64,000 nucleotides of DNA, from IMG/VR virus record IMGVR_UViG_3300045988_132833; one strand, written 5' to 3'. The notes under the pieces were generated by a model. It was not told where the DNA came from. It did no database searches and was given only the letters and a program-made list of their open reading frames with translations. The translations under genes were made by a program, and so were the position numbers. The stretch is from a virus. Shown piece after piece: positions 8,558 to 63,914 of this stretch (positions are counted from its first letter, which is position 1; each line of letters opens with the position of its first letter).

Positions 8558-8750
8558 ACATTAATACCTGAGTTAAATAATTAATTGCAGCAAGCTCGGT
8601 GTCATGGAGTTTGATAGGAGTACCGTTAAGGTCTATATCCCATCCTTCCCCGTTAGCCCACTCAGTGACAGTTATATAATCACCCTCTTTAGCTACATAG
8701 CTATACTTATTTAAATCATCCAAAACGGACTTAAGATTCTTTCTTTCCAT
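8547..8750 (-). CDS. Hypothetical protein
   Basis: 67 aa ORF overlapping its neighbours. Confidence 0.35.
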   Translation of the reverse strand: MERKNLKSVLDDLNKYSYVAKEGDYITVTEWANGEGWDIDLNGTPIKLHDTELAAINYLTQVLMYEK

Positions 8751-27212: not shown

Positions 27213-27704
27213 CTAGTGATTGGATAAACCGTTTCTTTCTTCGTAGCCATTAAAAAATGCATTAAAAGTTTTACGAATAATTCTATTGTTATGGACATTA
27301 TACTTTGGATTCCATCTTCCAGACCTATAAATCCATTTAATATCAGAGGACTTTATATCTTCAACCAGATATTTGTTAGGAAGACTATTAAACCCTCCAA
27401 CATTTATAGTTCCCCCTCCTTCTAAATATAGAGCGTAATGATTACAAGTTCCTGAACCTACTATAGAGGTACTTCTTGAGTTGTTCTTAACTTTAGAATG
27501 AATTTCCGATGAAATACTAATATCATCTTTCAACTCATTTGTAAAGATAAGTAACTTATATCTTAGTCCCAACCTATCTAGATGGAAGGCAATCAAATAT
27601 GCAACAAAACAACATCCACCATTGTTTATAAGGTATTTATTGTTAAGTTGCAAGCACAAATCGTTTAATGATCTATGTAAGCTGTGAACATTTAAATTCC
27701 GCAT
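27213..27704 (-). CDS. Hypothetical protein
   Basis: 163 aa ORF. Confidence 0.4.
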   Translation of the reverse strand: MRNLNVHSLHRSLNDLCLQLNNKYLINNGGCCFVAYLIAFHLDRLGLRYKLLIFTNELKDDISISSEIHSKVKNNSRSTSIVGSGTCNHYALYLEGGGTINVGGFNSLPNKYLVEDIKSSDIKWIYRSGRWNPKYNVHNNRIIRKTFNAFFNGYEERNGLSNH

Positions 27705-29051: not shown

Positions 29052-29445
29052 AATCTACAACTTGTTTTAAAATGTTATAACTTTCTTCCAATCCCGCTCT
29101 ATCATCGAGCAGAATATTATAATAGGGTTTTCTGGATCTACTAAATATTGGACTAGTATTAACAAAGAAATGGGAACTCTTGTAGTTCCATAAATCATTA
29201 GATACTAGCCATCGTACCTTCTCAGATACTTTATCAGGATCCTCATCCACGGTAAACAGAATGAGATCAAACTCTAGTTTAATGCATTCTTTTAAAAGTT
29301 CAATGACTTCACTATAATCACCTCCATTATTATGGAAGTCATATATAGTGTTGTCAAAGTCAAAGGCAACAATCAGCTTACCGTATTTATCATACTCCCC
29401 TTTGAGCCTATCTAAGCAGGCTTGCTGATTGAATGGGTGCTTCAT
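29014..29445 (-). CDS. HAD-like hydrolase
   Basis: VAFDFDNTIYDF (DxDxT) motif; 143 aa. Confidence 0.4.
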   Translation of the reverse strand: MKHPFNQQACLDRLKGEYDKYGKLIVAFDFDNTIYDFHNNGGDYSEVIELLKECIKLEFDLILFTVDEDPDKVSEKVRWLVSNDLWNYKSSHFFVNTSPIFSRSRKPYYNILLDDRAGLEESYNILKQVVDYANSKFSKFGEE

Positions 29446-30992
29446 AGTGTTGAATTTACACGTTCTCGAATCTCAGAAAGAGAATATTCTCTTACTAAGT
29501 CTCCATTTACAAAGACTGTTTCAAGACAACCTTCCAGTTCTGCATCCTTAGTCTGCTGGTCATAAGCAACATACTTACCATTCTCTTCTTCAACTCTTAT
29601 AAGACCTTTAAGAGAGTTCTTTGTCCCATCATCAGTCTTTGGATGCTTATAAATTTCTATAAGTCTTCCATTAATTATACAAGCAGTTGCTTTAACTGCG
29701 AATCCCAAAGAATCACGGGACTTAAACTGATAAGTATAAGATCCAATACCAAGAACAAGATTACAAGCTGCCATATGAGCATTCTCTAATCGAGCATAGA
29801 TGTCACGCTGACGCTCCAGAGTAATAGAATCTCCATAGAGCAAACCTATCTTGGTACTTGGATAACGATAATCATTTATAGTAGTATTCCATCCAAAGAT
29901 TTTACCTAGCATATAATATGCTCCATAATACTGACCTTCAGATACTTCTACATAATGATTCTCATCATCATCCATAAATGGATTGAAATCACAGTAATAC
30001 TTACCTTCTTTCATAGCAGTATGGTAATGAGGATTTGTACGAAGACCACAAATAATGTCTACTGGATCACCACTATCAGGACGAATTACTACTCTACCAT
30101 CACGTTTCATAATATCTGCCTTGAGCTTAGGCAAGAACTTCTCAACTACCTGCCAGAAATCCCAAGTATCAGATACTATTGAAATAATACCTGTTGGATA
30201 TAGGTCATTAATAAGACGGCGATATGTTTCAATCTCATCATCCTCACCTCCTGCACACATTACACTGTGTTCAGTTGCTGGAACAGTTGCAGCTACAAGT
30301 TCTTTAGTAACATCTGCATTGTAATAATGCTCTACTGCTTCGATAGCAGGTATTGTTTCACTACCACAGAATGAAGTCATGTGAGCCATACCAGAGATAA
30401 TAGCAGCATCAAGTCCTGCCATACCTCTCATTGAGAAATCGTGACAAGAGAAGCCTAGATTTACATCTTCTGGGAATCCAGTCTTTTTAGCATGTTCCAT
30501 AAGTCTCTTCTTATAAAGGCGAGCACTTGTTGCAGAAGTACAAGGAAGCCATAGAGTACAACTAATCAAAGTTTCCAAATAATTAGTCAACCAGAAGAAA
30601 TCAGGAAGAGTATTCTTAATAGTCATCATAGGTACTCTTATAGGGCAGATAGAGCCTTCAGGAAGAGCTTTAATTTCAATAGGAAGATATCCTAAATCAT
30701 AAAGTTCCTCAATATGCTTTGTTCCAACCTGATTAAGGTCTACAAAGTTACCTACACGATAAGCAAATTGCTTAATGGCTTCTTCCTTAGGAAGAGCAAA
30801 CCATTTATTAAATTCCTCAATCAGATACTTCTTTACAAAGTACTGAATACCAAATACTACAGAGCCTTCTGTGGCTTCTGGAAAGTAACGGCAACTTCTT
30901 GGAGTCCAGTTACTATAAACCATTTGTGTACCCTCTGGGTACATACGATGATGACCAAGTTTGTAGCCATCAGTTGCATTAATAATTTCCAT
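29442..30992 (-). CDS. nadV: Nicotinamide phosphoribosyltransferase (NAMPT/NadV)
   Basis: N-terminal ATDGYKLGHH matches the NAMPT TDSYK signature; 516 aa. Confidence 0.65.
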   Translation of the reverse strand: MEIINATDGYKLGHHRMYPEGTQMVYSNWTPRSCRYFPEATEGSVVFGIQYFVKKYLIEEFNKWFALPKEEAIKQFAYRVGNFVDLNQVGTKHIEELYDLGYLPIEIKALPEGSICPIRVPMMTIKNTLPDFFWLTNYLETLISCTLWLPCTSATSARLYKKRLMEHAKKTGFPEDVNLGFSCHDFSMRGMAGLDAAIISGMAHMTSFCGSETIPAIEAVEHYYNADVTKELVAATVPATEHSVMCAGGEDDEIETYRRLINDLYPTGIISIVSDTWDFWQVVEKFLPKLKADIMKRDGRVVIRPDSGDPVDIICGLRTNPHYHTAMKEGKYYCDFNPFMDDDENHYVEVSEGQYYGAYYMLGKIFGWNTTINDYRYPSTKIGLLYGDSITLERQRDIYARLENAHMAACNLVLGIGSYTYQFKSRDSLGFAVKATACIINGRLIEIYKHPKTDDGTKNSLKGLIRVEEENGKYVAYDQQTKDAELEGCLETVFVNGDLVREYSLSEIRERVNSTL

Positions 30993-31123
30993 TAATCTAT
31001 TAAATTTATGTTATTACTAAATTTCCTCATTAGGGTCTACCTCTATAGAGGAATACTTTGTCGTCAGAATTGAAAATAGGGCTAAAGCCATAAATATTCC
31101 TAATACAATTAAAAATCCCATAC

Positions 31124-33096: not shown

Positions 33097-33120
33097 ATGT
33101 TAAAAATTAAAGTTAATTGT

Positions 33121-33166
33121 AGCTCTGGCAGGATTCGAACCTGCCAAAAATACCATATAGAGCTTC
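33121..33166 (-). ncRNA. tRNA-like minihelix (acceptor stem plus T-arm only)
   Basis: AGCTCT-[13 nt]-GGCAGG-TTCGAAT-CCTGCC-AGAGCT: a canonical T-loop in a 6-bp stem, enclosed by a 6-bp acceptor-like stem; no D or anticodon arms. Confidence 0.45.
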
Positions 33167-33172
33167 TTTTTC

Positions 33173-33670
33173 TTAATGTAAGAAATCATAAACAGTTGGG
33201 TCTACTACAATTGTGCCATTAACTACACAGTAGTCATGGTCCTTGGTAAAATTATACATTCTAGTATCTCCAATGGACTTAAAGAATTTTGGAATAAATT
33301 CTAAACCCTTTATGGGTTCTCTCCTTATTTCACAAGTTGCTTTTAAGTTACCTTTTGAGATAATGTAATCAAATACCTTCTTATAAGTTCTAGCATAATA
33401 GACACAATGAGTTTTAGTCTCTTTGTTTAATGATAACTTATCAAAACCCTTATATTCAGATTTTGTAGAAAAAGTTAATGTACGAGAAGTTATCTCATTT
33501 GAGAAATCAATAACTTCCTTCAAATTATTCGGATTGATATGTCCATATTCTATTTTCATATCTATACAAGAATAGATATTTCCAGAATACTGAGATTTAC
33601 CCATCCCATAGCAATACCATGCGATAAACATACATGGAATGCTAATAAGCAATACTAACATCTTTTTCAT
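33173..33670 (-). CDS. Secreted/membrane-anchored protein
   Basis: N-terminal hydrophobic signal MKKMLVLLISIPCMFIAWYCYG; 165 aa. Confidence 0.45.
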   Translation of the reverse strand: MKKMLVLLISIPCMFIAWYCYGMGKSQYSGNIYSCIDMKIEYGHINPNNLKEVIDFSNEITSRTLTFSTKSEYKGFDKLSLNKETKTHCVYYARTYKKVFDYIISKGNLKATCEIRREPIKGLEFIPKFFKSIGDTRMYNFTKDHDYCVVNGTIVVDPTVYDFLH

Positions 33671-35713
33671 GCCTTATTTTCTCTTTCTTTTCTTATTATT
33701 TCAGAATATTTATTGTATACATTCCGCATACTATCTACCTTTTCGAGTGGGATATTATACTAATATCTCATTTTGTCAATATTATTTCCCAAATTCTTTC
33801 TAGTCACTCCTAATGTAACTGGAAGTCCTCTAGGAGAAAGTGCTGAATAGGATGCACCTTCATCTGGATCCCAAGCTGCTTCGTCAGTTAATACTACATT
33901 AAATCCATTCTTATTTCTAGACTAGGACATACTCATACCTCCATTAGAGTATTCAACTCTCTGTCCAGGATTAAGGAATTTTATAGGATTACTAAAATCT
34001 GCATATTTAGCTTCCCTGCCATGTGACCTATTATACACTTGGTAAACCCAAGGAGTTAATCCCTTCTAATCAGAGGCTATTGCCAGAGCAGCCAACTCTT
34101 GAATTTGATTATTGAAGTTATCTGACATATCTTTTTCGGTACGAGTTGTACTCTTTGAATCCAAACCAATTTTATTTCTCCACCCTTTATGAAGATCGTG
34201 AACATAAAAGTTAGTTGGTTCAAAGTTATAACCTGTAGTGACAAGCCCAGCTAAGCCCAAAGTACCTAATGCTCTATTCCTTCGAATTTTACTTGCCTCA
34301 TCCGAAATGAATGGCTTCATTGCTTCTTGCCTAACCTTTAGAAGGGCTAATTTATTTTCATCCCCTCCAAATTCTCTAGTGCCACTCTTGTAAACCTTAG
34401 TAGCTTTATCAGAGTTTTCCTACATCCATTTGAGTTGAGCCTTAGAAGCTGCACTCCTCATGGCTTTTGCATCCCTGATAGACTGCTTCTTCCCTTCTAA
34501 GTTGATTTCTCTCATCTTCTATGTAGGTCTCCAACTACCTGTCTACTGCAATATTTTCTACTTTGCAAGCTTGTTTAACTTCTTTTCAGCTGCAGCTTCA
34601 CCCGTAAAGATCCTCCCTAATCTATTTGAAGCTAACTTAGCCTTATTTACTAACTTACCAAACTAGAGAATTGCTCCTCTCTGTGCTTTATTAATTTGTT
34701 TCATTAGTATCCGAATTGCATCTTTCTCTAGTATATAGAGAATAAACTGTTAGGATTATATTGCTATGCCCAATTTGAAACAGTCTTATTGAAAGCATCC
34801 TAGGTTTGCTATCCCCACTTACCATCAGCATTTATTCCAAGTTTCTCTTGAAGTTGCTTGACAGCTTCCGGACTATTGTAACCAGCTTTAGCAGCACGAT
34901 AATCGAACACACTGTCATAGCCGCTATTATGAGCTTCCATAGTGTCATCAGCCGTACCTATAATTTGTCCAGTTTGTTTATTATATATATAACCATTGCT
35001 GCCTTGTAGGTACTGATCGGGAGTCAACCAATTTGTTCCATCGTAATAATTAGTATTTCCATACCTATCTATTCCGAATCCTTGCTGTTGATTTTCATAC
35101 TAACCAGTTTCCTGATTCCACTCCTGCCAACCATTGTTTGGGTTATACATATATTGCTATGGAGTTTCCTCTGCAGCACTAGGCTATTTAGAATTTCTTG
35201 GAATAACTAGATAAGCTCCAGTACCAAGACCACCTACGAGTCCAGTAGTTTTAAGAGTTCTTTTAATACCCTTATTCCTAACTTGTCTTAGGGCATCATT
35301 CGTAACCTGTCTCTTAGTATTATTGAAAGCTTCCTTAGCTTCCATACTTTTCTATGATGCAGTTATTGCACTTCTTTCAGCTTCATCTGTTTTTCGCGCA
35401 GCATCATTTACTCTCTTTACATTTCTTTTACTATTAGGCTACTTCCAATTTTTAGTACTGTTTAATAATTTACTTTCTGCTTGCTAAGCTTCTTTATATC
35501 TTTGAGCTGCAAGATTATGACTCATTTCAGCTCCTCTCTAACTATTTCTAGATGCAATTAATTCTGGAGAAGCTTGCCTAGCTCTAACGACAGCTCTTTC
35601 ACCTCCTCCAATTCGTCTCATCAGGTTTCCGAAGTAATCTGGTATCATCTAACCATGACCTTTTAACCAATTTACTCCCTCACCTAAGTATTGTGCTTTC
35701 TTTTTAATACTCA
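33668..35713 (-). CDS. Late/structural-region gene(s) densely interrupted by in-frame TAG codons (TAG likely read as sense)
   Basis: By-eye translation from the ATG at 35711-35713 gives MSIKKKAQYLGEGVNWLKGHG[TAG]MIPDYFGNLMRRIGGGERAVVRAR[Q]ASPELIASRNS[TAG]RGAEMSHNLAAQRYKEA[TAG]QAESKLLN... The first ~0.25 kb contains three TAGs and no TAA/TGA. Every ORF-track fragment in the block ends in TAG (34066, 34809, 36238). The terminal TGA overlaps the next gene start. Exact gene boundaries are uncertain. Confidence 0.5.
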
Positions 35714-35729
35714 TATTTAATTATTATTA

Positions 35730-36991
35730 GATAAATTTACCATATAACTGCTATGTGCATAAGGGTATAGTGCCATAGTAGGATCTGAAGCCATAAGCCC
35801 CTGAAATGCAGCTTTTCCTACATTTACAAATCTGCCGCCAATTCCTTCTGCTCCTCCTAGTCTCTTAGGGGCTAATGCCCTTCTTACAGAATTAAGTGCA
35901 CTTCCAGCCTAATAAAGGTTAGCAGCACCTGGTGTATGAGACATAATAGGTTTCCAACTGTTCTTCAGCGTAGTACCTACTCCATCTCTTACCATTCCAG
36001 AGACTCCAGTCTTAAGTCTAGAGACTCCACCCTTCATATCTTTAGTTCCAAGGATAGCCATAGCAAAGTTGGCATCATCGTTAATATTTCTTCTCTACTA
36101 TTCGTCTAGTCCAGTCCAGGCAAAGTTCTAATCAGCAAATCCTTTATTTCTAGGATCATCTGGCAATATGCCTTCTTCTCCTGGAGTTAAATAACTTCTG
36201 ACAGAGTTAACATCTTTACCTAGATCTAGATATTGTCCTAGATTACCAGCTTCTCTTTCAACCTTCTATGGTAGCAAGAGCTGTAAGGCAGTTCCAATAG
36301 TTCCTCCAAGAACAGCATTTCCAGTTCTAGAGATATCTCCAAGAGTATCATTGAATCGTACCAAAGCACCTGTGTTTCGTTTTGGTCCCAACACACTCTG
36401 AGGAACATTATCGTACATTTCACCTCTTCTGGCATATCCCTTTTTCCAAATATCAGGAATTGATTTAAAGGAATCAATGAAGTTTTTTGCTGCACTATCC
36501 CAGTTGCCTTCCCAAGCACCTTTCTTGAAAGGATTTAGATCACTCCAACTAAATTCATCAGGATCCTAAGCAGAAGTCTATGATTTCTGTCGTGCTATAT
36601 AAGCCTTCATAGCTTTATTCTTTGTATCTTGATTTAGATAGGTATCTTTATTATTGAAAGGGTTTCTCTGTGTATAGCCAGTTGCTGTTTTTCTAGCTCC
36701 TGCTGCCTTTGCATTCTCCTCTATTCTAGAAGCTGCTTCATCCCATGTAGCAGTTTTCCCTTGCTTAGAAGATTTGACATCATTAAAACGCCAACGTCCA
36801 TTCTAGAATATGTTTCCATTTCTAGTATTCATTGAGGTTCTATTGGCAACTTCCCTTCCATATTTTCCTGCTAAATATCTCCAAGCAGCACCAGAAATGG
36901 GCTACCCTTTCTAGGCAATCTTGTTGCCGTTTACATCTCGGTAATATCCATCTTTACCAAGCCACAATTTACTCATATTAAAATCAGCCAT
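35730..36991 (-). CDS. Late/structural-region gene interrupted by in-frame TAG codons
   Basis: ATG at 36989-36991 preceded by an A11 leader; translation MADFNMSKLWLGKDGYYRDVNGNKIA[TAG]KG[TAG]PISGAAWRY... continues to about 35730 with only TAG stops in frame. Confidence 0.45.
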
Positions 36992-37027
36992 TTTCTTCTT
37001 TTTTTTTTTGTTTACAGGAACAGGTAG

Positions 37028-37106
37028 TACCTCCTAGTGGATTCGAACCACTGACAGTTTCACTAATATAGACTTTGTTAAACTTCTACCACTGATATAA
37101 GGAGGT
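37028..37106 (-). tRNA. tRNA-like gene with a candidate CUA anticodon (putative amber suppressor), non-canonical fold
   Basis: Perfect 7-bp acceptor ACCTCCT/AGGAGGT, T-arm AGTGG-TTCGAAT-CCACT, D-loop AGTGGTAGA; anticodon arm ACAAA-GTCTATA-TTAGT (U33 then CTA) stacked on a further 5-bp stem AGTTT/AAACT; the D-stem is poorly paired; 79 nt. Confidence 0.4.
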
Positions 37107-37286
37107 AACCTAGTTAGTTATACTCCAACTAAAAATGAGTTTAGGTTATTTTCACTGGTTTTATTATAACATTCCATTGTCCCAGCACCTATCGTACGTT
37201 CTTTCTCTTTCTAACCCAAATGATTAATTTTAAGGTAATTTACGATATTTAAACGAGTCAGTGGGAGATGTTTGTTACCTAAAGTT

Positions 37287-38423: not shown

Positions 38424-38470
38424 AAGGTTGAGAGGATTCGAACCTCTATAGAGCCTTAACTCCAACCTAA
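38424..38470 (-). ncRNA. tRNA-like minihelix (acceptor stem plus T-arm only)
   Basis: AGGTTG-[15 nt]-AGAGG-TTCGAAT-CCTCT-CAACCT; no 5' partner for a full-length acceptor stem is visible upstream. Confidence 0.45.
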
Positions 38471-39122: not shown

Positions 39123-40931
39123 TTAATCCTTCTTGACCTCTTCCTTGCCTGCGATGGCATTGAGAGTCTTCTTGAAAGGAATAGACTTGAGAAGTTCAAA
39201 TGCTGGATTGAGATTCTCAGCCATTGAAGCCATGAAGTTACCAGCAGTGTTCTCGTTACCATAAACAGTAACCTCACCAAGATGGATATGCTCATAAACC
39301 TCAGCCTGAGCTTCGGCGATACCCTTAAGCTGATCGACAGTCTTATACTGAACAATCATCTCTGGAGTCATACCTGTCTCAATCATCTTCTCAATTGCAA
39401 GTGCTGGAGCCATCTCAATAGCCTGAACCTTATCAGCCTCAGCCATCAAAGAGGCACGCTTACCTTCTGCCTCAGCAAGGAGTTTCTTCTTGTTACCCTC
39501 CGCCTCAGCTTCTGCCTTAGCCTGGATTGCCTGAGCCTCAGCCAGAGCTTTCTGCTTAATTGCTTCAGCCTCAGCCTGTGCCTCAACAATCTTCTTCTGC
39601 TTCTCAGCCTCAGCCTCAATAACTACAGCTTCCTTCTTCTTCTGAGCAGGAACAATAGACTCAGCGTTCAACTGTGCCTCCTTAGCTTCAGCATTCTTCT
39701 TAGCAATTGCTACTTCAGCTTCAGCCTTAGATACACCCTCAACACGGACTGCTTCAGCCTGTGCCTTAGCAGCCTCAGCTTGTGCCTTAGAAACCTCAAT
39801 AGTTGCTGTCTGCTCAGCTACGCCTGCCTGCTTATTAGCTTCAGCTGTACGCTTACGCTTTTCAGCATCATACTCAGCTACCTTAGCTTCCTGCTCATTA
39901 ATAGCCTTTCTGGTTTCAGCTTCCTGCTGCTGTTCAGCCTTAGCCATACGAATATTCTTCTCAGCCTCTGCCTCTGCCTGTGCAGCAAGAGCATCTGCTT
40001 CAGACTTTGCTACAGCGGCAGCTGAACGAGCCTGTGCAGCAGCAGTAGCAGCTTCCTTATCAGCCTGCTGATTAGCAACCTCAGACTCCTTAGTCTTATC
40101 AGCCTCTGCAAGACTAATTGCCTTGTTCTTCTCGATCTCGGCAACCTTTACTTCCTGCTCCTGCTTAGTCTGAGCTACCTGAGTAGCTTGATCCTTCTCT
40201 GCAGCAGCTACGGCAATTGCTTTCTCCTTCTTGGTTTCAGCAATCTGAATATCACCCTTCTTTTCCTCCTCAGCAATGTCTGCCTCAGCTTGTGCCTTTG
40301 CCTTGGTAGCTGCCTTCTTACCGAGATTCTCGATATAGTCAGCATCATCAGTAATATCAGCATTGTTAATGTTAATAATACTGAAACCTACCTTGTTCAA
40401 TTCAGTCTCGATATTCTCCTTAGCATTACCAAGGAACTTAATTCGATCAGCATTGATCTCTTCGATGGTCATAGTAGCCATCAAAGCACGAGTTTCACCA
40501 ATAAGAATATCGGTAATTTGAGCAGAAATTTCCTCAGGTTTAGCAGTCAGGAAACGACTTGCAGCATTTTGCATGAGTACATCAGTTGTACCAATTCCAG
40601 TAGTTAAGGTAACTGGAATTTTGACCTTAATCATCTGACTTGACACACCCGTTACCTCTGTCTGAATCTGGATAGGTTTCAGAGACATCTTCTTCCAATC
40701 CTGGATTACAGGGAATACAAAGGTACCTCCGCCATGGATGATCTTAGAAGGAAGAATTGTTGTTTCCTTCTTGCCAGTTGCTGGATTGATTCCAACTTTC
40801 TTGCCAGTCTTACCAAAGACTACCAAGATTTCATCACTTGCACAACGACGATAACGTGACATGAGACCGATGAGGGTCAAGATTACAAGCACAACTATTG
40901 CGCCTGCAATAACTAAACTTTCTGTTAACAT
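39123..40931 (-). CDS. Flotillin-like SPFH/Band-7 protein (YqiK-like)
   Basis: N-terminal TM, an SPFH-like region, then a long Ala/Glu/Lys-rich coiled coil with AEAEAE repeats; 602 aa. Confidence 0.55.
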   Translation of the reverse strand: MLTESLVIAGAIVVLVILTLIGLMSRYRRCASDEILVVFGKTGKKVGINPATGKKETTILPSKIIHGGGTFVFPVIQDWKKMSLKPIQIQTEVTGVSSQMIKVKIPVTLTTGIGTTDVLMQNAASRFLTAKPEEISAQITDILIGETRALMATMTIEEINADRIKFLGNAKENIETELNKVGFSIININNADITDDADYIENLGKKAATKAKAQAEADIAEEEKKGDIQIAETKKEKAIAVAAAEKDQATQVAQTKQEQEVKVAEIEKNKAISLAEADKTKESEVANQQADKEAATAAAQARSAAAVAKSEADALAAQAEAEAEKNIRMAKAEQQQEAETRKAINEQEAKVAEYDAEKRKRTAEANKQAGVAEQTATIEVSKAQAEAAKAQAEAVRVEGVSKAEAEVAIAKKNAEAKEAQLNAESIVPAQKKKEAVVIEAEAEKQKKIVEAQAEAEAIKQKALAEAQAIQAKAEAEAEGNKKKLLAEAEGKRASLMAEADKVQAIEMAPALAIEKMIETGMTPEMIVQYKTVDQLKGIAEAQAEVYEHIHLGEVTVYGNENTAGNFMASMAENLNPAFELLKSIPFKKTLNAIAGKEEVKKD

Positions 40932-41547: not shown

Positions 41548-42129
41548 CTATGCCATCCATCTCCAATCACAGTTTGTACCACCATAACTAACCTCAAACA
41601 GAAGCTTTCCAAATTGCTTAGAAATGTACAGGGCGGCTTTCTTTGAACCAACCGACCGGAAGCCGATATTCGCCCAGGAGTCAGACACGCCGAAAAACGA
41701 GTAGAAGGCACCGAGACCCGCATACGCGCCGGTATCAGCGTAACCGCCCACGACATCGAACTCTTCTCCTTCTGATTTGATTCGTCCTACAACGATGTCA
41801 CCGCAACAATTCTTAAGCTTTCCAGGTCTACAGAACTCAATAGTAGGAAACCAACGTTCTCCAGTGGTAAGATGCCTCTGTTCATTATAGGTTACAGCTG
41901 CAACTACTGCTCTGTAAGCAGCTATCTTCCACTCAAATGAGTCCTTAGGAAGTCTAGACAGTGAGTCCAGAATATCCTCACAGATCCTCTTGTCTGCGAG
42001 AAATTGAGCAGCGTCCTCGATAGTTTTGATACTTTCCATGGTATCTACATCTTCGAAGACAACACGACCATCCTTCCAAATGGCTTTTTTACCATCTGGA
42101 ACTTCAATTTCTAATACCTGTTTTGCCAT
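41548..42129 (-). CDS. Hypothetical protein
   Basis: 193 aa ORF. Confidence 0.4.
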   Translation of the reverse strand: MAKQVLEIEVPDGKKAIWKDGRVVFEDVDTMESIKTIEDAAQFLADKRICEDILDSLSRLPKDSFEWKIAAYRAVVAAVTYNEQRHLTTGERWFPTIEFCRPGKLKNCCGDIVVGRIKSEGEEFDVVGGYADTGAYAGLGAFYSFFGVSDSWANIGFRSVGSKKAALYISKQFGKLLFEVSYGGTNCDWRWMA

Positions 42130-49470: not shown

Positions 49471-49600
49471 TAGAGTTACCCAGAGTACGCCACGTGGAGG
49501 CTTGTCTATGTACTCCTGGAGATGAGGGGAGTCGAACCCCTGTCTTACATATTTGCATCAAAGCATTCTTACAGCATAGGTTTTAAAGACTATCCTTGTC
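49471..49600 (-). pseudogene. Degenerate tRNA-like element plus a duplicated 3'-flank motif
   Basis: T-arm AGGGG-TTCGACT-CCCCT is present but no 5' acceptor partner or anticodon arm folds. The 49471-49520 segment (ATTAGAGTTACCC[AG][AG]AGTA..CCACG.GGAGG) repeats at 51231-51282, where it flanks an intact tRNA-Pro. Confidence 0.35.
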
Positions 49601-49885
49601 TTTTAGGGTTGACAGGATTGATATACTGTTAACTTCCACCACTCTGTTCCTGAAGTGTACAGAGAACTTATAGAATTGTCAATGGCGCACCTTTCTGTTC
49701 CTAAGCAAGTGCTGCTCGGCTTATTAGGCAGCAGCCTGATAAGCAGGAGTCATATTAATAACTCTAGCATTTATTGTTTTGTTGTCTTTCCAACTGTCTT
49801 TGCTGTGCTTCTTATCTCCTATGCAATCAAAACCAAACATCCCCATAGTAAGCAGTTTCAGGTCATGCTTAGGACTTTCTTTCAC

Positions 49886-50520: not shown

Positions 50521-51274
50521 TTTACAAGAATACATTTGCTGTTAGATTCCTTCTTATAATTTATTCTGGTAAATTACCATATTCCCATTTATATTTAAAG
50601 GCAGTTTTAGCCTTGTGCTTGCAGCAATTTGTAATTTTACTCGTTGCTGTTCTATTTTTTGCTAATCCATGCTCTACCAACCAATCCATTGCGTCCTAAA
50701 TGCTCTGGAATGTCTAGATGTAATTCCCAGCAAGATCATACTAAAGAACAACTTTAGAATCTCCCTTCCTTATTTTAATGGAATTTGTTTTTGCTACTTT
50801 ATATACAATATCAGAACAACATCCAACTTTATTACAAACCTGAGCAGAACTATACCCCAATTTAAGGAGATCAACTATTTCACGATAATCATAGAGTATC
50901 TTTCCATCTCCACCACAGGTAGCATTGTATCCTCCAGAGCCAAAGGTTTGCAACTCCTTGATCCAAAAGATCTCTCTTTGCGAGAGGACATCCTAAGATA
51001 TTCCATCTTCTAGTATGTCTAGTCGAAAGTTTTCTATCCCATACTTATTCATTGCATCATAAAGAGGTCGCTTATTACATCTTTTCTTCTAGCTATCTAC
51101 ACAGTGTTCCTTGAATCTTTCCTCAGGATTTTTAGTAGTTTTTCCTATATACCTTTTGTTATTTAATAAGTTTGTAATGCAATAAATATATCCCATATTA
51201 CTTTTTTTTTTCTTTATTATAAGCTATTAGAGTTACCCGAAGTATACCACGCGGAGGTTGCTTACACATACTTC

Positions 51275-51362
51275 TCTAGGTGACAGGACTCGAACCTGCA
51301 TCCGCTTATTAAGCCTCCACCTGATCCCAAATCAGGGCTCTAGCCAATTAGAGTACACCTAG
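51275..51362 (-). tRNA. tRNA-Pro (anticodon TGG) with a long variable arm
   Basis: Acceptor CTAGGTG/CACCTAG, D-arm CTCT-AATTGGCT-AGAG, anticodon arm CCTGA-TTTGGGA-TCAGG, about 20-nt variable region containing a GCTT-AAT-AAGC hairpin, T-arm GCAGG-TTCGAGT-CCTGT. Confidence 0.5.
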
Positions 51363-51474
51363 ATAAACAGAAGACTTGTTTGTACTTACTTGATCCCTAA
51401 TCGAGTGTATGAAATACTTGCTGTTAGTCTTCTTACTTATTAACAATAAAAACAAAAAAGAGTATCCAGTCGAG

Positions 51475-51517
51475 GTGCATGAGGATTCGAACCTCTACTT
51501 CCTACTGAGGAATGCAC
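51475..51517 (-). ncRNA. tRNA-like minihelix (acceptor stem plus T-arm only)
   Basis: GTGCAT-[16 nt]-GAGG-TTCGAAT-CCTC-ATGCAC. Confidence 0.4.
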
Positions 51518-51592
51518 CTTAAACAGAGAACTTAAAAAGAATCATAAAATAACCATTAGCAATATTGCTGAAGTTCTCTTATGATAGCTAGT

Positions 51593-55867: not shown

Positions 55868-56086
55868 TTACATAGAATAAGCTTCTTCCAATTCCTTAGA
55901 CCAAGCTTGATAAACACTAATAAATGGTTTATGCATCATATTATGCTTTTTGGCATAATCGAGCAAATACTTTAGTTCTTGTAAATCCATAGTTAATATA
56001 ATTAATGTTTGTAGCTCTAGCGAGAGTCGAACTCGCACGCCCATTCCTGGACAACAGATTTTCCTACCACACTTGCTTTTATACAA
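55868..56086 (-). CDS. Small protein, paralog of 59028..59300
   Basis: C-terminal YAKKHNMMHKPFISVYQAW versus YAKDNNLMDKPFVEVYNLY in the paralog. Confidence 0.4.
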   Translation of the reverse strand: MYKSKCGRKICCPGMGVRVRLSLELQTLIILTMDLQELKYLLDYAKKHNMMHKPFISVYQAWSKELEEAYSM

Positions 56087-56100
56087 GCTAACTTAAATAA
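56020..56100 (-). tRNA. tRNA-like element (T-arm GCGAG-TTCGACT-CTCGC); remainder not foldable by eye
   Basis: A perfect T-arm and 3' acceptor TAGAGCT, but no clean 5' partner or anticodon arm was identified. Confidence 0.25.
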
Positions 56101-56135
56101 AGGGGCTCGAACCCTTAATCCTCAAGAAATATTTA
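56094..56135 (-). ncRNA. tRNA-like minihelix (acceptor stem plus T-arm only)
   Basis: TTAAATA-[11 nt]-AAGGG-TTCGAGC-CCCTT-TATTTAA; the AT-only stem could be chance, but the architecture matches the other three minihelices. Confidence 0.3.
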
Positions 56136-56673
56136 ACGACGACTTTAGAGGCGCTTCCGTCAATCTGCTGCCGTATACCAATTCCGCCATATTTAAGTTA
56201 TTGTGGTCTGGACTATTTTACTACCATATTAGAAATCTTGCAAGTAAGTATATAAGGTTTAATCTAACCTCTAATAGCAGTCTGCTCCCCTTATTTCTGC
56301 GAATCTTGCCAGTTTAATTTTAAATATACAATTCCTAACTTAGGTATCTCCTATATAGTCTCTACGCCATTTATAAACAAAATAAGAGTCTACAATATGC
56401 CTATTGTCTTCGCCACTCCACCGATACATTAAGAGGTATGTCTGTTGCCCCTCACTCTTATTTTGTTTAATTTAGTTCGCCGTCACCAAAACTTACGTCA
56501 CCATAAGTGAGGCTTCCGTGCAAGTTAATTAGATTTCTGAATACTGCTTCTATAATCATTACTCTGCTTCTTACACAGACGCTAACCTTTTTACGATTAG
56601 TAATAACTTGTTTAATTAGGGAGATTCTACTTCTGAACTTTCGTATCAGAGCACTCAAATTTTAAGACTACTT

Positions 56674-57192: not shown

Positions 57193-57360
57193 AATTATTG
57201 GTAGACAAAATTAAAAAATGATATTTTTGTCTACCTTAAAGTCTGTCGGGTCTACCATTCCCCCATAGAGCCATCCTTTCTTAAAGAAGTTTGTATATCA
57301 TAATTATTATTTTCAAAATAGTCCTGTACGATTTGAGCATTGTTAAGAGGCTTGACAGGA

Positions 57361-58609: not shown

Positions 58610-58698
58610 TGGTGTTCCCTATGGGACTAGAACCCATGACCCTCGGATTAAAAGTCCGATGCTCTCTAGCCTTGCGGAACCAACTGAGCTAAGGGAAC
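58610..58698 (-). tRNA. tRNA-Lys (anticodon TTT) with an enlarged D-loop; CCA encoded
   Basis: Acceptor GTTCCCT/AGGGAAC followed by ACCA, anticodon arm TCGGA-CTTTTAA-TCCGA, T-arm ATGGG-TTCTAGT-CCCAT; D-arm GCTC...GAGC encloses about 21 nt. Confidence 0.6.
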
Positions 58699-63115: not shown

Positions 63116-63244
63116 AGAATTTCACCTCCCTAGCGAGGATTTGTTACGTCTAGGAAAAATTACAGTCTTTGACTGTCAGTCAGTATAATTTTTCAAGCGG
63201 AGCTACTATTATTCACTCAAAACTATACAAAACTAGAAATGTGT

Positions 63245-63335
63245 TCCCTCTCTAGGTATCGAACCTAGTAACTATCTCTTCTATAGCCTACAGATAAGAA
63301 AGTTAACAGCTATACTTGTGGACAGGGACTATTTA
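63245..63335 (-). tRNA. tRNA-like element (T-arm CTAGG-TTCGATA-CCTAG), probably a long type-II tRNA; anticodon undetermined
   Basis: Acceptor candidate TCCCTGT/AGAGGGA with one mismatch; the interior includes a CTAT-AGAAGAG-ATAG hairpin. Confidence 0.3.
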
Positions 63336-63617: not shown

Positions 63618-63914
63618 CTAGCCCATTTTCTCAAAGGCTTCTTTGAAAAGTTTGTCTGCATCCTCCTTGGTAGGATTCTTCATTTCCTTCAACTTCTTCT
63701 CAATTTCAGAAGCTTTAGAAAGAACCTTTCTCATTTGCGCATGAATTGCGACATGTCCTGCCAAAACTGATGCAATAACCATAGCCTGTACTTCCTCAGG
63801 AAGTTCTTTAATACTTTCTTTAAAGCTAGTGTCATCGCAACTAAATCCCATTGCTACAGCTGAGGTTGCCTTGTCTACAACCTTAGCACTGTACATTTTG
63901 TCTCCTTTTTCCAT
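63618..63914 (-). CDS. Hypothetical helical protein
   Basis: 98 aa ORF; A14 leader upstream of the ATG. Confidence 0.4.
   Translation of the reverse strand: MEKGDKMYSAKVVDKATSAVAMGFSCDDTSFKESIKELPEEVQAMVIASVLAGHVAIHAQMRKVLSKASEIEKKLKEMKNPTKEDADKLFKEAFEKMG

Follow-up and report, generated by a model that had tools for sequence, protein, structure and literature searches.

The window (the whole stretch of DNA analysed here, 64,000 nucleotides (nt) of the viral record IMGVR_UViG_3300045988_132833 in IMG/VR) is part of a phage of ~175 kb (relatives 165–182 kb; more than 20 transfer RNAs (tRNAs), a transfer-messenger RNA (tmRNA), NrdD and NAMPT), and the present study concerns a tRNA-like gene of 79 nt on its minus strand, at 37028–37106. 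The element is placed between an OmpA-family gene with a structured RNA of 142 nt on one side and a cassette of three genes dense in TAG codons on the other, all on the same strand, and the ATG of the first cassette gene (36991) lies 35–36 nt downstream of it. From the letters alone (the sequence-only reading) it had been proposed to be an amber suppressor tRNA with a CUA anticodon, lying ~35 nt upstream of the first TAG-interrupted gene as the expected switch for TAG recoding. The position, at the head of the recoded cassette, is as described; the role is weighed below.

Read along the minus strand from 37106 down to 37028, the element opens with the acceptor strand ACCUCCU (37100–37106), which forms a perfect 7-bp stem with AGGAGGU at 37029–37035, and it continues through UA, UAUCAGUGGUAGA, AGUUU, A, ACAAA, GUCUAUA, UUAGU, G, AAACU and GUC to the T arm AGUGG-UUCGAAU-CCACU (37036–37052; 5-bp stem, 7-nt loop), the second acceptor strand and the discriminator A at 37028, which is counted in the 79 nt. 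The D region UAUAUCAGUGGUAGA (37085–37099) carries G18G19 in a canonical D-loop, AGUGGUAGA, of the form AGUGGUA(GA), and its stem is UAUC/GAAG in the register of our covariance model or UAUC/GUUU in that of ARAGORN, with ~2 Watson-Crick pairs whichever register is taken; ARAGORN pairs two Watson-Crick and two U.U positions here and leaves a variable region of 9 nt. The anticodon arm (37056–37084) is aberrant, stacking 11 layers (AGUUU.ACAAA / UUAGU.AAACU) over 24–29 nt against the normal 17 nt, with an A.A mismatch in the centre of the inner hairpin ACAAA/UUAGU and an A.G mismatch between this hairpin and the outer helix AGUUU/AAACU, and the folding energy of the 29-nt arm is only -0.8 kcal/mol. 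Its 7-nt loop GUCUAUA (37067–37073) presents CUA at 37069–37071 behind U33, its position 32 being G and its position 37, normally a purine, being U. The sequence-only reading had described the perfect acceptor stem, the canonical T arm, the D-loop, the outer 5-bp helix, the weak D-stem and an abnormally long anticodon arm, and each of these is borne out, the last by both ARAGORN and the alignment to the covariance model; of the anticodon hairpin that it drew, the U33-CUA in a 7-nt loop stands, and the stem turns out to be interrupted by the two mismatches. As in a canonical tRNA, the acceptor stem and discriminator are stacked on a T arm with U54 U55 C56 ... A58, but in place of a 5-bp/7-nt anticodon arm with U33 and purine 37 there is an arm 7–12 nt too long. 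Just upstream lies a 5' leader hairpin, UUAGUU-(11 nt)-AACUAG (37110–37132, minus strand), which shows a compensatory change from CUAGUU/AACUAG in contig c120048 to CCAGUU/AACUGG in the L285/L289 clade (numbers with L denote loci), and both this hairpin and a CCUGUUCC trailer are conserved around the element.

At default settings ARAGORN reports the element as tRNA(cta) at 37027–37106. A covariance model built from 11 canonical tRNAs of the phage family (R1) scores it at 36.6 bits (E ~4e-9 in 34 kb), within the range for the class-II and odd tRNAs of the phage; what the model matches in the alignment is the acceptor, D and T parts, and 20 nt inside the anticodon arm are passed over as a local insert. 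The general tRNA model of Rfam, RF00005, picks up 20 other tRNAs in the window (34–73 bits) and leaves the element unmatched, both at the gathering score of 29 bits and at E<=10 on 251 nt. The sole Rfam match at the locus, Plastid-ycf2 on the plus strand with 23 bits against a threshold of 65.7 bits, is spurious and reflects the reverse complement of the tRNA shape. The folding z-score of the whole molecule is unremarkable (-1.69), a BLASTN search of the element against GenBank phages returned generic T-arm matches only, and pattern scans of IMG/VR and metagenomes with the odd loop and the D/T motifs returned near-identical relatives plus unrelated tRNAs only. The element is clearly tRNA-derived and no chance match, with a lower half unlike that of a normal tRNA. 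A reading of the extra length as an intron was also tried: the fold is unchanged when ARAGORN is run in intron mode, inspection finds no bulge-helix-bulge, and a role in splicing is unsupported; the 11-nt insert of the longer allele described below sits at canonical positions 39/40-40/41.

The cassette downstream, all on the minus strand, consists of gene 1 (35717–36991; 424 amino acids (aa), 10 in-frame TAG, with 5–8 TAG in its homologues), gene 2 (34704–35714; 336 aa, 12 in-frame TAG, a weak sub-threshold peptidoglycan-binding domain) and gene 3 (33667–34704; 345 aa, 8 in-frame TAG), the start of gene 3 overlapping the stop of gene 2 by 1 nt. The downstream TAG recoding claimed by the sequence-only reading is confirmed by counts of in-frame TAG, which makes up 30 of 1105 codons in these three genes and none of the 4909 codons in ten other long genes; in the cassette it accounts for 43% of the glutamine (Gln)-type codons. 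Judged by its alternation pattern among close relatives, TAG is a sense codon in the cassette and most likely reads as Gln: where genes 1 and 2 align well, it alternates with CAA (5 columns), CAG (4), AAG (5) and GAG. Tyrosine, leucine, serine and tryptophan were considered and rejected, as TTG and TGG never alternate with TAG and TAT, TAC or TCA do so in few columns, nearly all through the divergent gene 2 of L007. Decoding of UAGN quadruplets by an allele with an 8-nt loop is ruled out as well, the reading frames requiring triplets. Outside the cassette TAG closes about 7 of 63 open reading frames (ORFs), in most of which a TAA or TGA back-up stop follows 1–18 codons on, and since TAG is used as a stop elsewhere in the window, its use as a sense codon would be specific to the cassette. 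TAG-ended ORFs of the minus strand include 12214–13761, 17388–18398, 27213–27704 and 41548–42129.

The sequence-only reading had spoken of late genes, a label that the context does not bear out. Each cassette protein has a central hydrophobic segment, genes 1 and 3 are without a match in PHROGs and Pfam, and the gene upstream of the element belongs to the OmpA family (an exact look-up of its 337-aa product found it not on record). In relatives, the neighbours of the cassette are GH25 lysozyme, Phage_lysozyme2 and Peptidase_C92 genes, and the cassette may fairly be taken for an envelope or lysis module.

Near-identical phages carry two alleles of the element, namely the 79-nt short form of the window and a 90-nt long form met in the pattern scans, which is set apart by three A->G substitutions and by 11 inserted nt, UGCAUAGAUAG, and is found in two independent assemblies (c110911 and ERZ1034865) with the cassette TAGs kept. 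In c110911, A29G and an inserted GC create a GCAA/UUGC stem that leaves the CUA exposed, and ARAGORN folds the molecule as a class-II cloverleaf, a variable-arm hairpin being formable in the long allele only. A class-II origin (from a leucine, serine or tyrosine tRNA) fits c110911, but the variable-arm helix is broken in L285/L289 and C30-G43 is lost in L289, and we rejected it.

More distant loci were fetched through homologues of gene 1, the slot being defined as the interval between the OmpA-family gene and gene 1, and all of them are TAG-dense, with 5–14 TAG per cassette gene. Their slots are occupied in different ways. The 90-nt form recurs in L285 and L289–292, where the arm is a nearly perfect hairpin of ~19 bp with the CUA within the stem; L286/L287 hold an orthologue from which the CUA loop region is deleted and whose interior is unalignable; the cloverleaf of L293 has an anticodon loop of 6 nt; in L294 the place is taken by an ordinary tRNA-Arg(UCU); and L288 and L295 have no tRNA in the slot. 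Anticodon loops of 6 or 8 nt occur among orthologous versions, and over six versions ARAGORN reads the anticodon as cta, 'ct', gtc, none, none and 'tt'. The outcome of the structure-aware tools, to which the sequence-only reading had referred its claim, is therefore split, with a cta call by ARAGORN for the window on one side and rejection of the locus by Rfam and differing or absent anticodons in the orthologues on the other.

The top half behaves quite differently. Across four distinct orthologous sequences all 12 pairs of the acceptor and T stems stay paired, although 7 of the 12 have changed on both sides (4 of 7 in the acceptor stem, none broken, and 3 of 5 in the T stem; for example 2-71 C-G->A-U, 50-64 G-C->A-U and 51-63 U-A->A-U), in segments that were picked by hand, which favours pairing; none of 500 shuffles reaches the observed level, and slid registers pair in 35–56% of cells. 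This pairing is kept where the neighbouring protein is 54–62% identical and the interior of the element is unalignable, and the element with its leader hardly differs between clades in which the identity of the gene 1 proteins is only ~54%. Because the acceptor and T stems remain paired through compensatory changes while the anticodon arm varies, selection, as read from these comparisons, holds the top half and not the anticodon. The sequence-only reading had proposed covariation analysis across related phages as a check; by it the acceptor and T stems are conserved, and the anticodon arm is not.

A canonical tRNA(CUA) is present elsewhere in near-identical genomes. By walking past the window end through a window-encoded protein we reached contig ERZ10407480 NODE_87, 97–99% identical to the window, where a tRNA(CUA) (L297 4282–4353) with the loop CUCUAAA scores 55.2 bits with RF00005 and heads the tRNA array of the phage, ~5.6 kb beyond window coordinate 64000; it lies ~5.6 kb upstream of the 98-aa gene 63618–63914, which lies ~90 nt inside the window end. 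The long-allele genome c110911 likewise has a canonical tRNA(CUA), 5.4 kb upstream of the same tRNA array, and the type, recorded also at L302 9858–9932, is present in 32 IMG/VR loci. Its anticodon arm, GCGGU-CUCUAAA-ACCGC, differs from that of the window tRNA-Trp, GCGGU-CUCCAAA-AUCGC, by CCA->CUA and by C40 versus U40, with 75% identity between the two tRNAs overall, and its D arm resembles that of the phage tRNA-Gln. NODE_87, to which both L297 and L332 belong, also bears the short allele with one change, at the A21 position of the D-loop (A21 is G in the 98.5%-identical genome, L332/L333). We had considered a complementary distribution, with the short allele occurring only where the canonical suppressor is missing and standing in for it, and this is refuted because NODE_87 carries both.

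Because relatives lose the CUA loop and a textbook CUA tRNA lies elsewhere in near-identical genomes, the element is likelier to be a processing signal than a switch. Tentatively, and with somewhat less than even confidence, we read it as a tRNA-derived 'top-half' module kept as an RNase P/Z-type processing signal, and not as a TAG-recoding switch; it may descend from an older suppressor whose anticodon arm has decayed. The role of expected switch assigned to it earlier is not supported by the comparison, with orthologues that lose or bury the CUA and a canonical tRNA(CUA) on the same contig in a 98.5%-identical genome. In the scenario that we propose, one transcript would span the upstream OmpA-family gene, the 142-nt RNA and the element, and the element would fold into a tRNA-shaped module; host RNase P would then cut on its 5' side and RNase Z after the discriminator, freeing the A-rich leader and the TAG-dense cassette mRNA. 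The CUA of the window allele would not decode, and the reader of TAG in the cassette would be, as is probable, the separate canonical tRNA(CUA).

The opposite end of the block would be marked by a 45-nt 'top-half' minihelix (33120–33164, minus strand), which consists of an acceptor-like stem and a T arm, GCAGG-UUCGAAU-CCUGC, lacks both the D arm and the anticodon arm, and scores 23.2 bits with R1. Its sequence, at the far end of the cassette block, is shared without a single difference (100% identity) by L285 and L286, although the flanks differ, the proteins neighbouring it there being 54–62% identical to those of the window. Along the strand the order is tRNA-Arg, two genes, the structured RNA, the tRNA-like gene, four genes, the minihelix, one gene and tRNA-Trp, and the stretch between the OmpA-family gene and the cassette contains no predicted intrinsic terminator. 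A second armless minihelix, with an acceptor-like stem and a T arm whose loop is UUCGAAU, lies at 51472–51519 on the minus strand, the armless minihelices spanning 45–48 nt; weaker R1 matches lie at 63244–63303, 56012–56136 and 38424–38468.

Several observations weigh against this reading. Processing by RNase P and RNase Z is something that we purely infer. The short allele passes ARAGORN with a U33-CUA in a 7-nt loop, which is the very anticodon that the neighbouring genes need and has a chance of ~1/256 in a random loop; it is invariant in at least 6 contigs save for one D-loop change, and the alleles of the window, c110911 and L285/L289 all retain GUCUAUAU. L293 is perhaps not a strict orthologue, and the hand-picking of the segments noted above tells on the same side. 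The canonical suppressor is known from near-identical genomes, whereas for the strain of the window itself L298 ends ~1.3 kb before the site; two short-allele contigs, 3300045988_120048 and _073177, have no match to either canonical-suppressor pattern, the expected site in c120048 being one that would span the contig ends. Furthermore, phages with several genes for CUA suppressors (Sup-CUA) are known (PMC10607447).

In a rival reading the element is a working, structurally aberrant second amber suppressor, with a long anticodon stem or an enlarged variable region and a weak D stem, which tops up the TAG decoding of the adjoining cassette, and whose long-hairpin alleles could be masked or inactive. 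The tRNA(cta) call, the R1 score of 36.6 bits and a U33-CUA loop 35 nt from genes in which TAG takes so large a share of the Gln-type codons would all fit such a suppressor, as would the stem of c110911 that leaves the CUA exposed in a class-II cloverleaf, the existence of phages with multiple copies of Sup-CUA and the undetected non-canonical suppressors predicted by Borges et al. We nevertheless consider it unlikely, given U37, G32, the A.A mismatch in the anticodon stem, the D stem of ~2 pairs and the arm of -0.8 kcal/mol, together with the absence of a match to RF00005; the CUA is buried in L285/L289 and missing in L286, with cassettes that are TAG-dense nonetheless, and the same genomes hold the canonical suppressor. 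By established tRNA geometry, moreover, an anticodon helix of 8–11 layers misfits the fixed distance from anticodon to CCA unless the D stem is sacrificed. A bolder version takes precisely this step and would make the element a new structural class of phage amber suppressor, in which the D stem is given up for an anticodon helix of 9–11 layers and an 'unmasked' 79-nt and a 'masked' 90-nt allele provide a switchable, cassette-specific decoder beside the canonical tRNA(CUA). If that were true, the 11-nt insert, being complementary to the anticodon region, would hide the CUA until removed or remodelled; we think it very unlikely.

The variability of the locus could also mean that the element is a decaying tRNA pseudogene without function, left over from a tRNA duplication or from a former suppressor that the canonical one has superseded, and the hypervariable anticodon arm with its indels and loops of 6 or 8 nt, the change of A21 to G in a close relative, and slots that have no tRNA (L288, L295) or an ordinary tRNA-Arg (L294) are all in keeping with decay. 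Decay hardly accounts for acceptor and T stems kept perfectly through compensatory changes at 54–62% identity of the neighbouring proteins, or for an element and leader nearly unchanged between clades with ~54%-identical gene 1 proteins, and a pseudogene is quite unlikely in our judgement. Selection confined to the top half would also suit some other role of that half, as a decoy or sponge for host nucleases of tRNA-targeting defence, as a non-ribosomal aminoacyl carrier, or as a module for stability or translation in the 5' untranslated region. The same phage has tRNAs with inserted hairpins (in the D-loop of tRNA-Lys and the variable region of tRNA-Pro) and further armless minihelices, and the leader hairpin and trailer are conserved, which argues for such a role; no partner enzyme was identified among the window proteins scanned, and we hold this, too, to be unlikely.

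Directly upstream of the tRNA-like gene, and starting 5 nt past the stop of the OmpA-family gene, with which it is probably co-transcribed, lies the structured RNA of 142 nt (37141–37282, minus strand). It is 82–84% identical to elements in Prevotella Lak megaphages and crAss-like Burzaovirus phages, and eight of its pairs show compensatory changes. We found it in 37 IMG/VR loci (contigs), invariably within tRNA arrays and in the orientation of the tRNAs; in most cases it directly follows tRNA-Gln(UUG) or precedes tRNA-Met by 12 nt, and the gut viral contigs that bear it measure 50–550 kb. Neither Rfam nor the GTDB genomes gave a match. This RNA, reminiscent of the stable small RNAs encoded in the tRNA cluster of T4, is a structured RNA unannotated in Rfam and common to Lak megaphages, crAss-like phages and phages of ~175 kb; literature searches on it or on phage tRNA-like minihelices returned nothing relevant.

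Other features of the minus strand of the window are recorded here for completeness. Two tRNAs that are sound in other respects contain inserted hairpins: tRNA-Lys(UUU) (58613–58698) has a 14-nt insert in the D-loop, for which ARAGORN miscalls a 4-base anticodon 'agag', and the variable region of tRNA-Pro(UGG) (51274–51363) is enlarged by a hairpin, GCUU-AAU-AAGC. The tRNA-rich region also contains a tmRNA (49514–49844; RF00023, 60 bits), unreported by ARAGORN, and an abiF RNA motif (57322–57359; RF03085, 50 bits). Auxiliary genes encode an NrdD-like anaerobic ribonucleotide reductase (8750–10921), a NAMPT/NAPRTase-family protein (29442–31010) and an SPFH/Band 7 protein (39123–40931).

Among known systems, the closest at first sight is the Sup-CUA of phages that read TAG as Gln (code 15), as in the Lak, crAss-like, Sapphire/Agate-type and phAss-1 clades (bioRxiv 10.1101/2021.08.26.457843; PMC10607447; PMC9523058), with which the locus shares a phage tRNA gene with a CUA loop and TAG as a sense codon. 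A Sup-CUA beside recoded lysis genes is an already known kind, and the locus departs from it in what defines it: unlike phage Sup-CUA, the element escapes RF00005 and has a non-canonical arm with U37 and G32, its TAG-recoded orthologues do not keep the anticodon, and in near-identical genomes it is neither the sole nor the best CUA tRNA. The true counterpart of Sup-CUA in this phage family is the canonical tRNA(CUA) outside the window. A suppressor tRNA can be detected in only ~40% of the phage genomes that recode TAG, and it has been proposed that non-canonical suppressors account for the rest. The present locus had the appearance of such a suppressor; the comparison illustrates that a CUA-bearing tRNA call beside recoded genes can mislead, the canonical decoder lying elsewhere and the conserved part being the tRNA-shaped top half.

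The CUA anticodon and the longer-than-usual anticodon helix also invite comparison with tRNA-Pyl, tRNA-Sec and allo-tRNA. The 'Pyl' label of ARAGORN is merely its name for anticodon CUA, and of the traits of tRNA-Pyl (6-bp anticodon stem, 3-nt variable loop, small D-loop without GG, one-nt connector) the element does not show the set: its acceptor-D connector has two nt (UA) and its D-loop of 7–10 nt contains GG. No pylS or pylBCD gene was found among the proteins scanned, in a scan that was not exhaustive. The likeness to tRNA-Sec that the sequence-only reading had suggested fails on the 7/5 helices, in place of 8/5 or 9/4, and on the GG D-loop; tRNA-Sec and allo-tRNA have a 13-bp stack, a 6-bp D stem with a 4-nt loop and a long variable arm, whereas the element has a weak D stem, with none of 6 bp, and a variable region of 3–9 nt.

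Mitochondrial tRNAs that lack a D arm and have an extended anticodon stem, such as mammalian mitochondrial tRNA-Ser(AGY), offer a nearer geometry. If AGUUU/AAACU pairs, the 11-layer helix of the element would have the normal length of an anticodon-stem and D-stem stack, with the D region as a connector that keeps GG; that type, however, keeps a canonical 7-nt anticodon loop among orthologues, which the element does not. For the canonical tRNA(CUA), and not for the element, the parallel is E. coli su+7, a tRNA-Trp with CCA->CUA that is charged largely with Gln: both combine a Trp-type anticodon arm carrying CCA->CUA with TAG that behaves as Gln, but the phage molecule has a tRNA-Gln-like D arm.

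In function, as far as comparison allows, the element most resembles the tRNA-like processing signals represented by the mitochondrial tRNA punctuation model, the t-elements of plant mitochondria and the mascRNA of MALAT1. To our knowledge such signals have been described for organelles and eukaryotic nuclei and not for phage operons. With them it shares a conserved acceptor/T top half on which selection appears to act, combined with an anticodon arm that is dispensable or degenerate and can vary or vanish; an armless minihelix stands at the other end of the block. The element lies between genes of one strand, and their transcript would probably be polycistronic. In the phage element, cleavage is predicted. 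If this reading is true, a gut phage family cuts out the mRNA of its TAG-dense envelope or lysis cassette by means of tRNA-like modules, in the manner of t-elements and tRNA punctuation, and the genes subject to code switching would be those subject to RNA processing as well.

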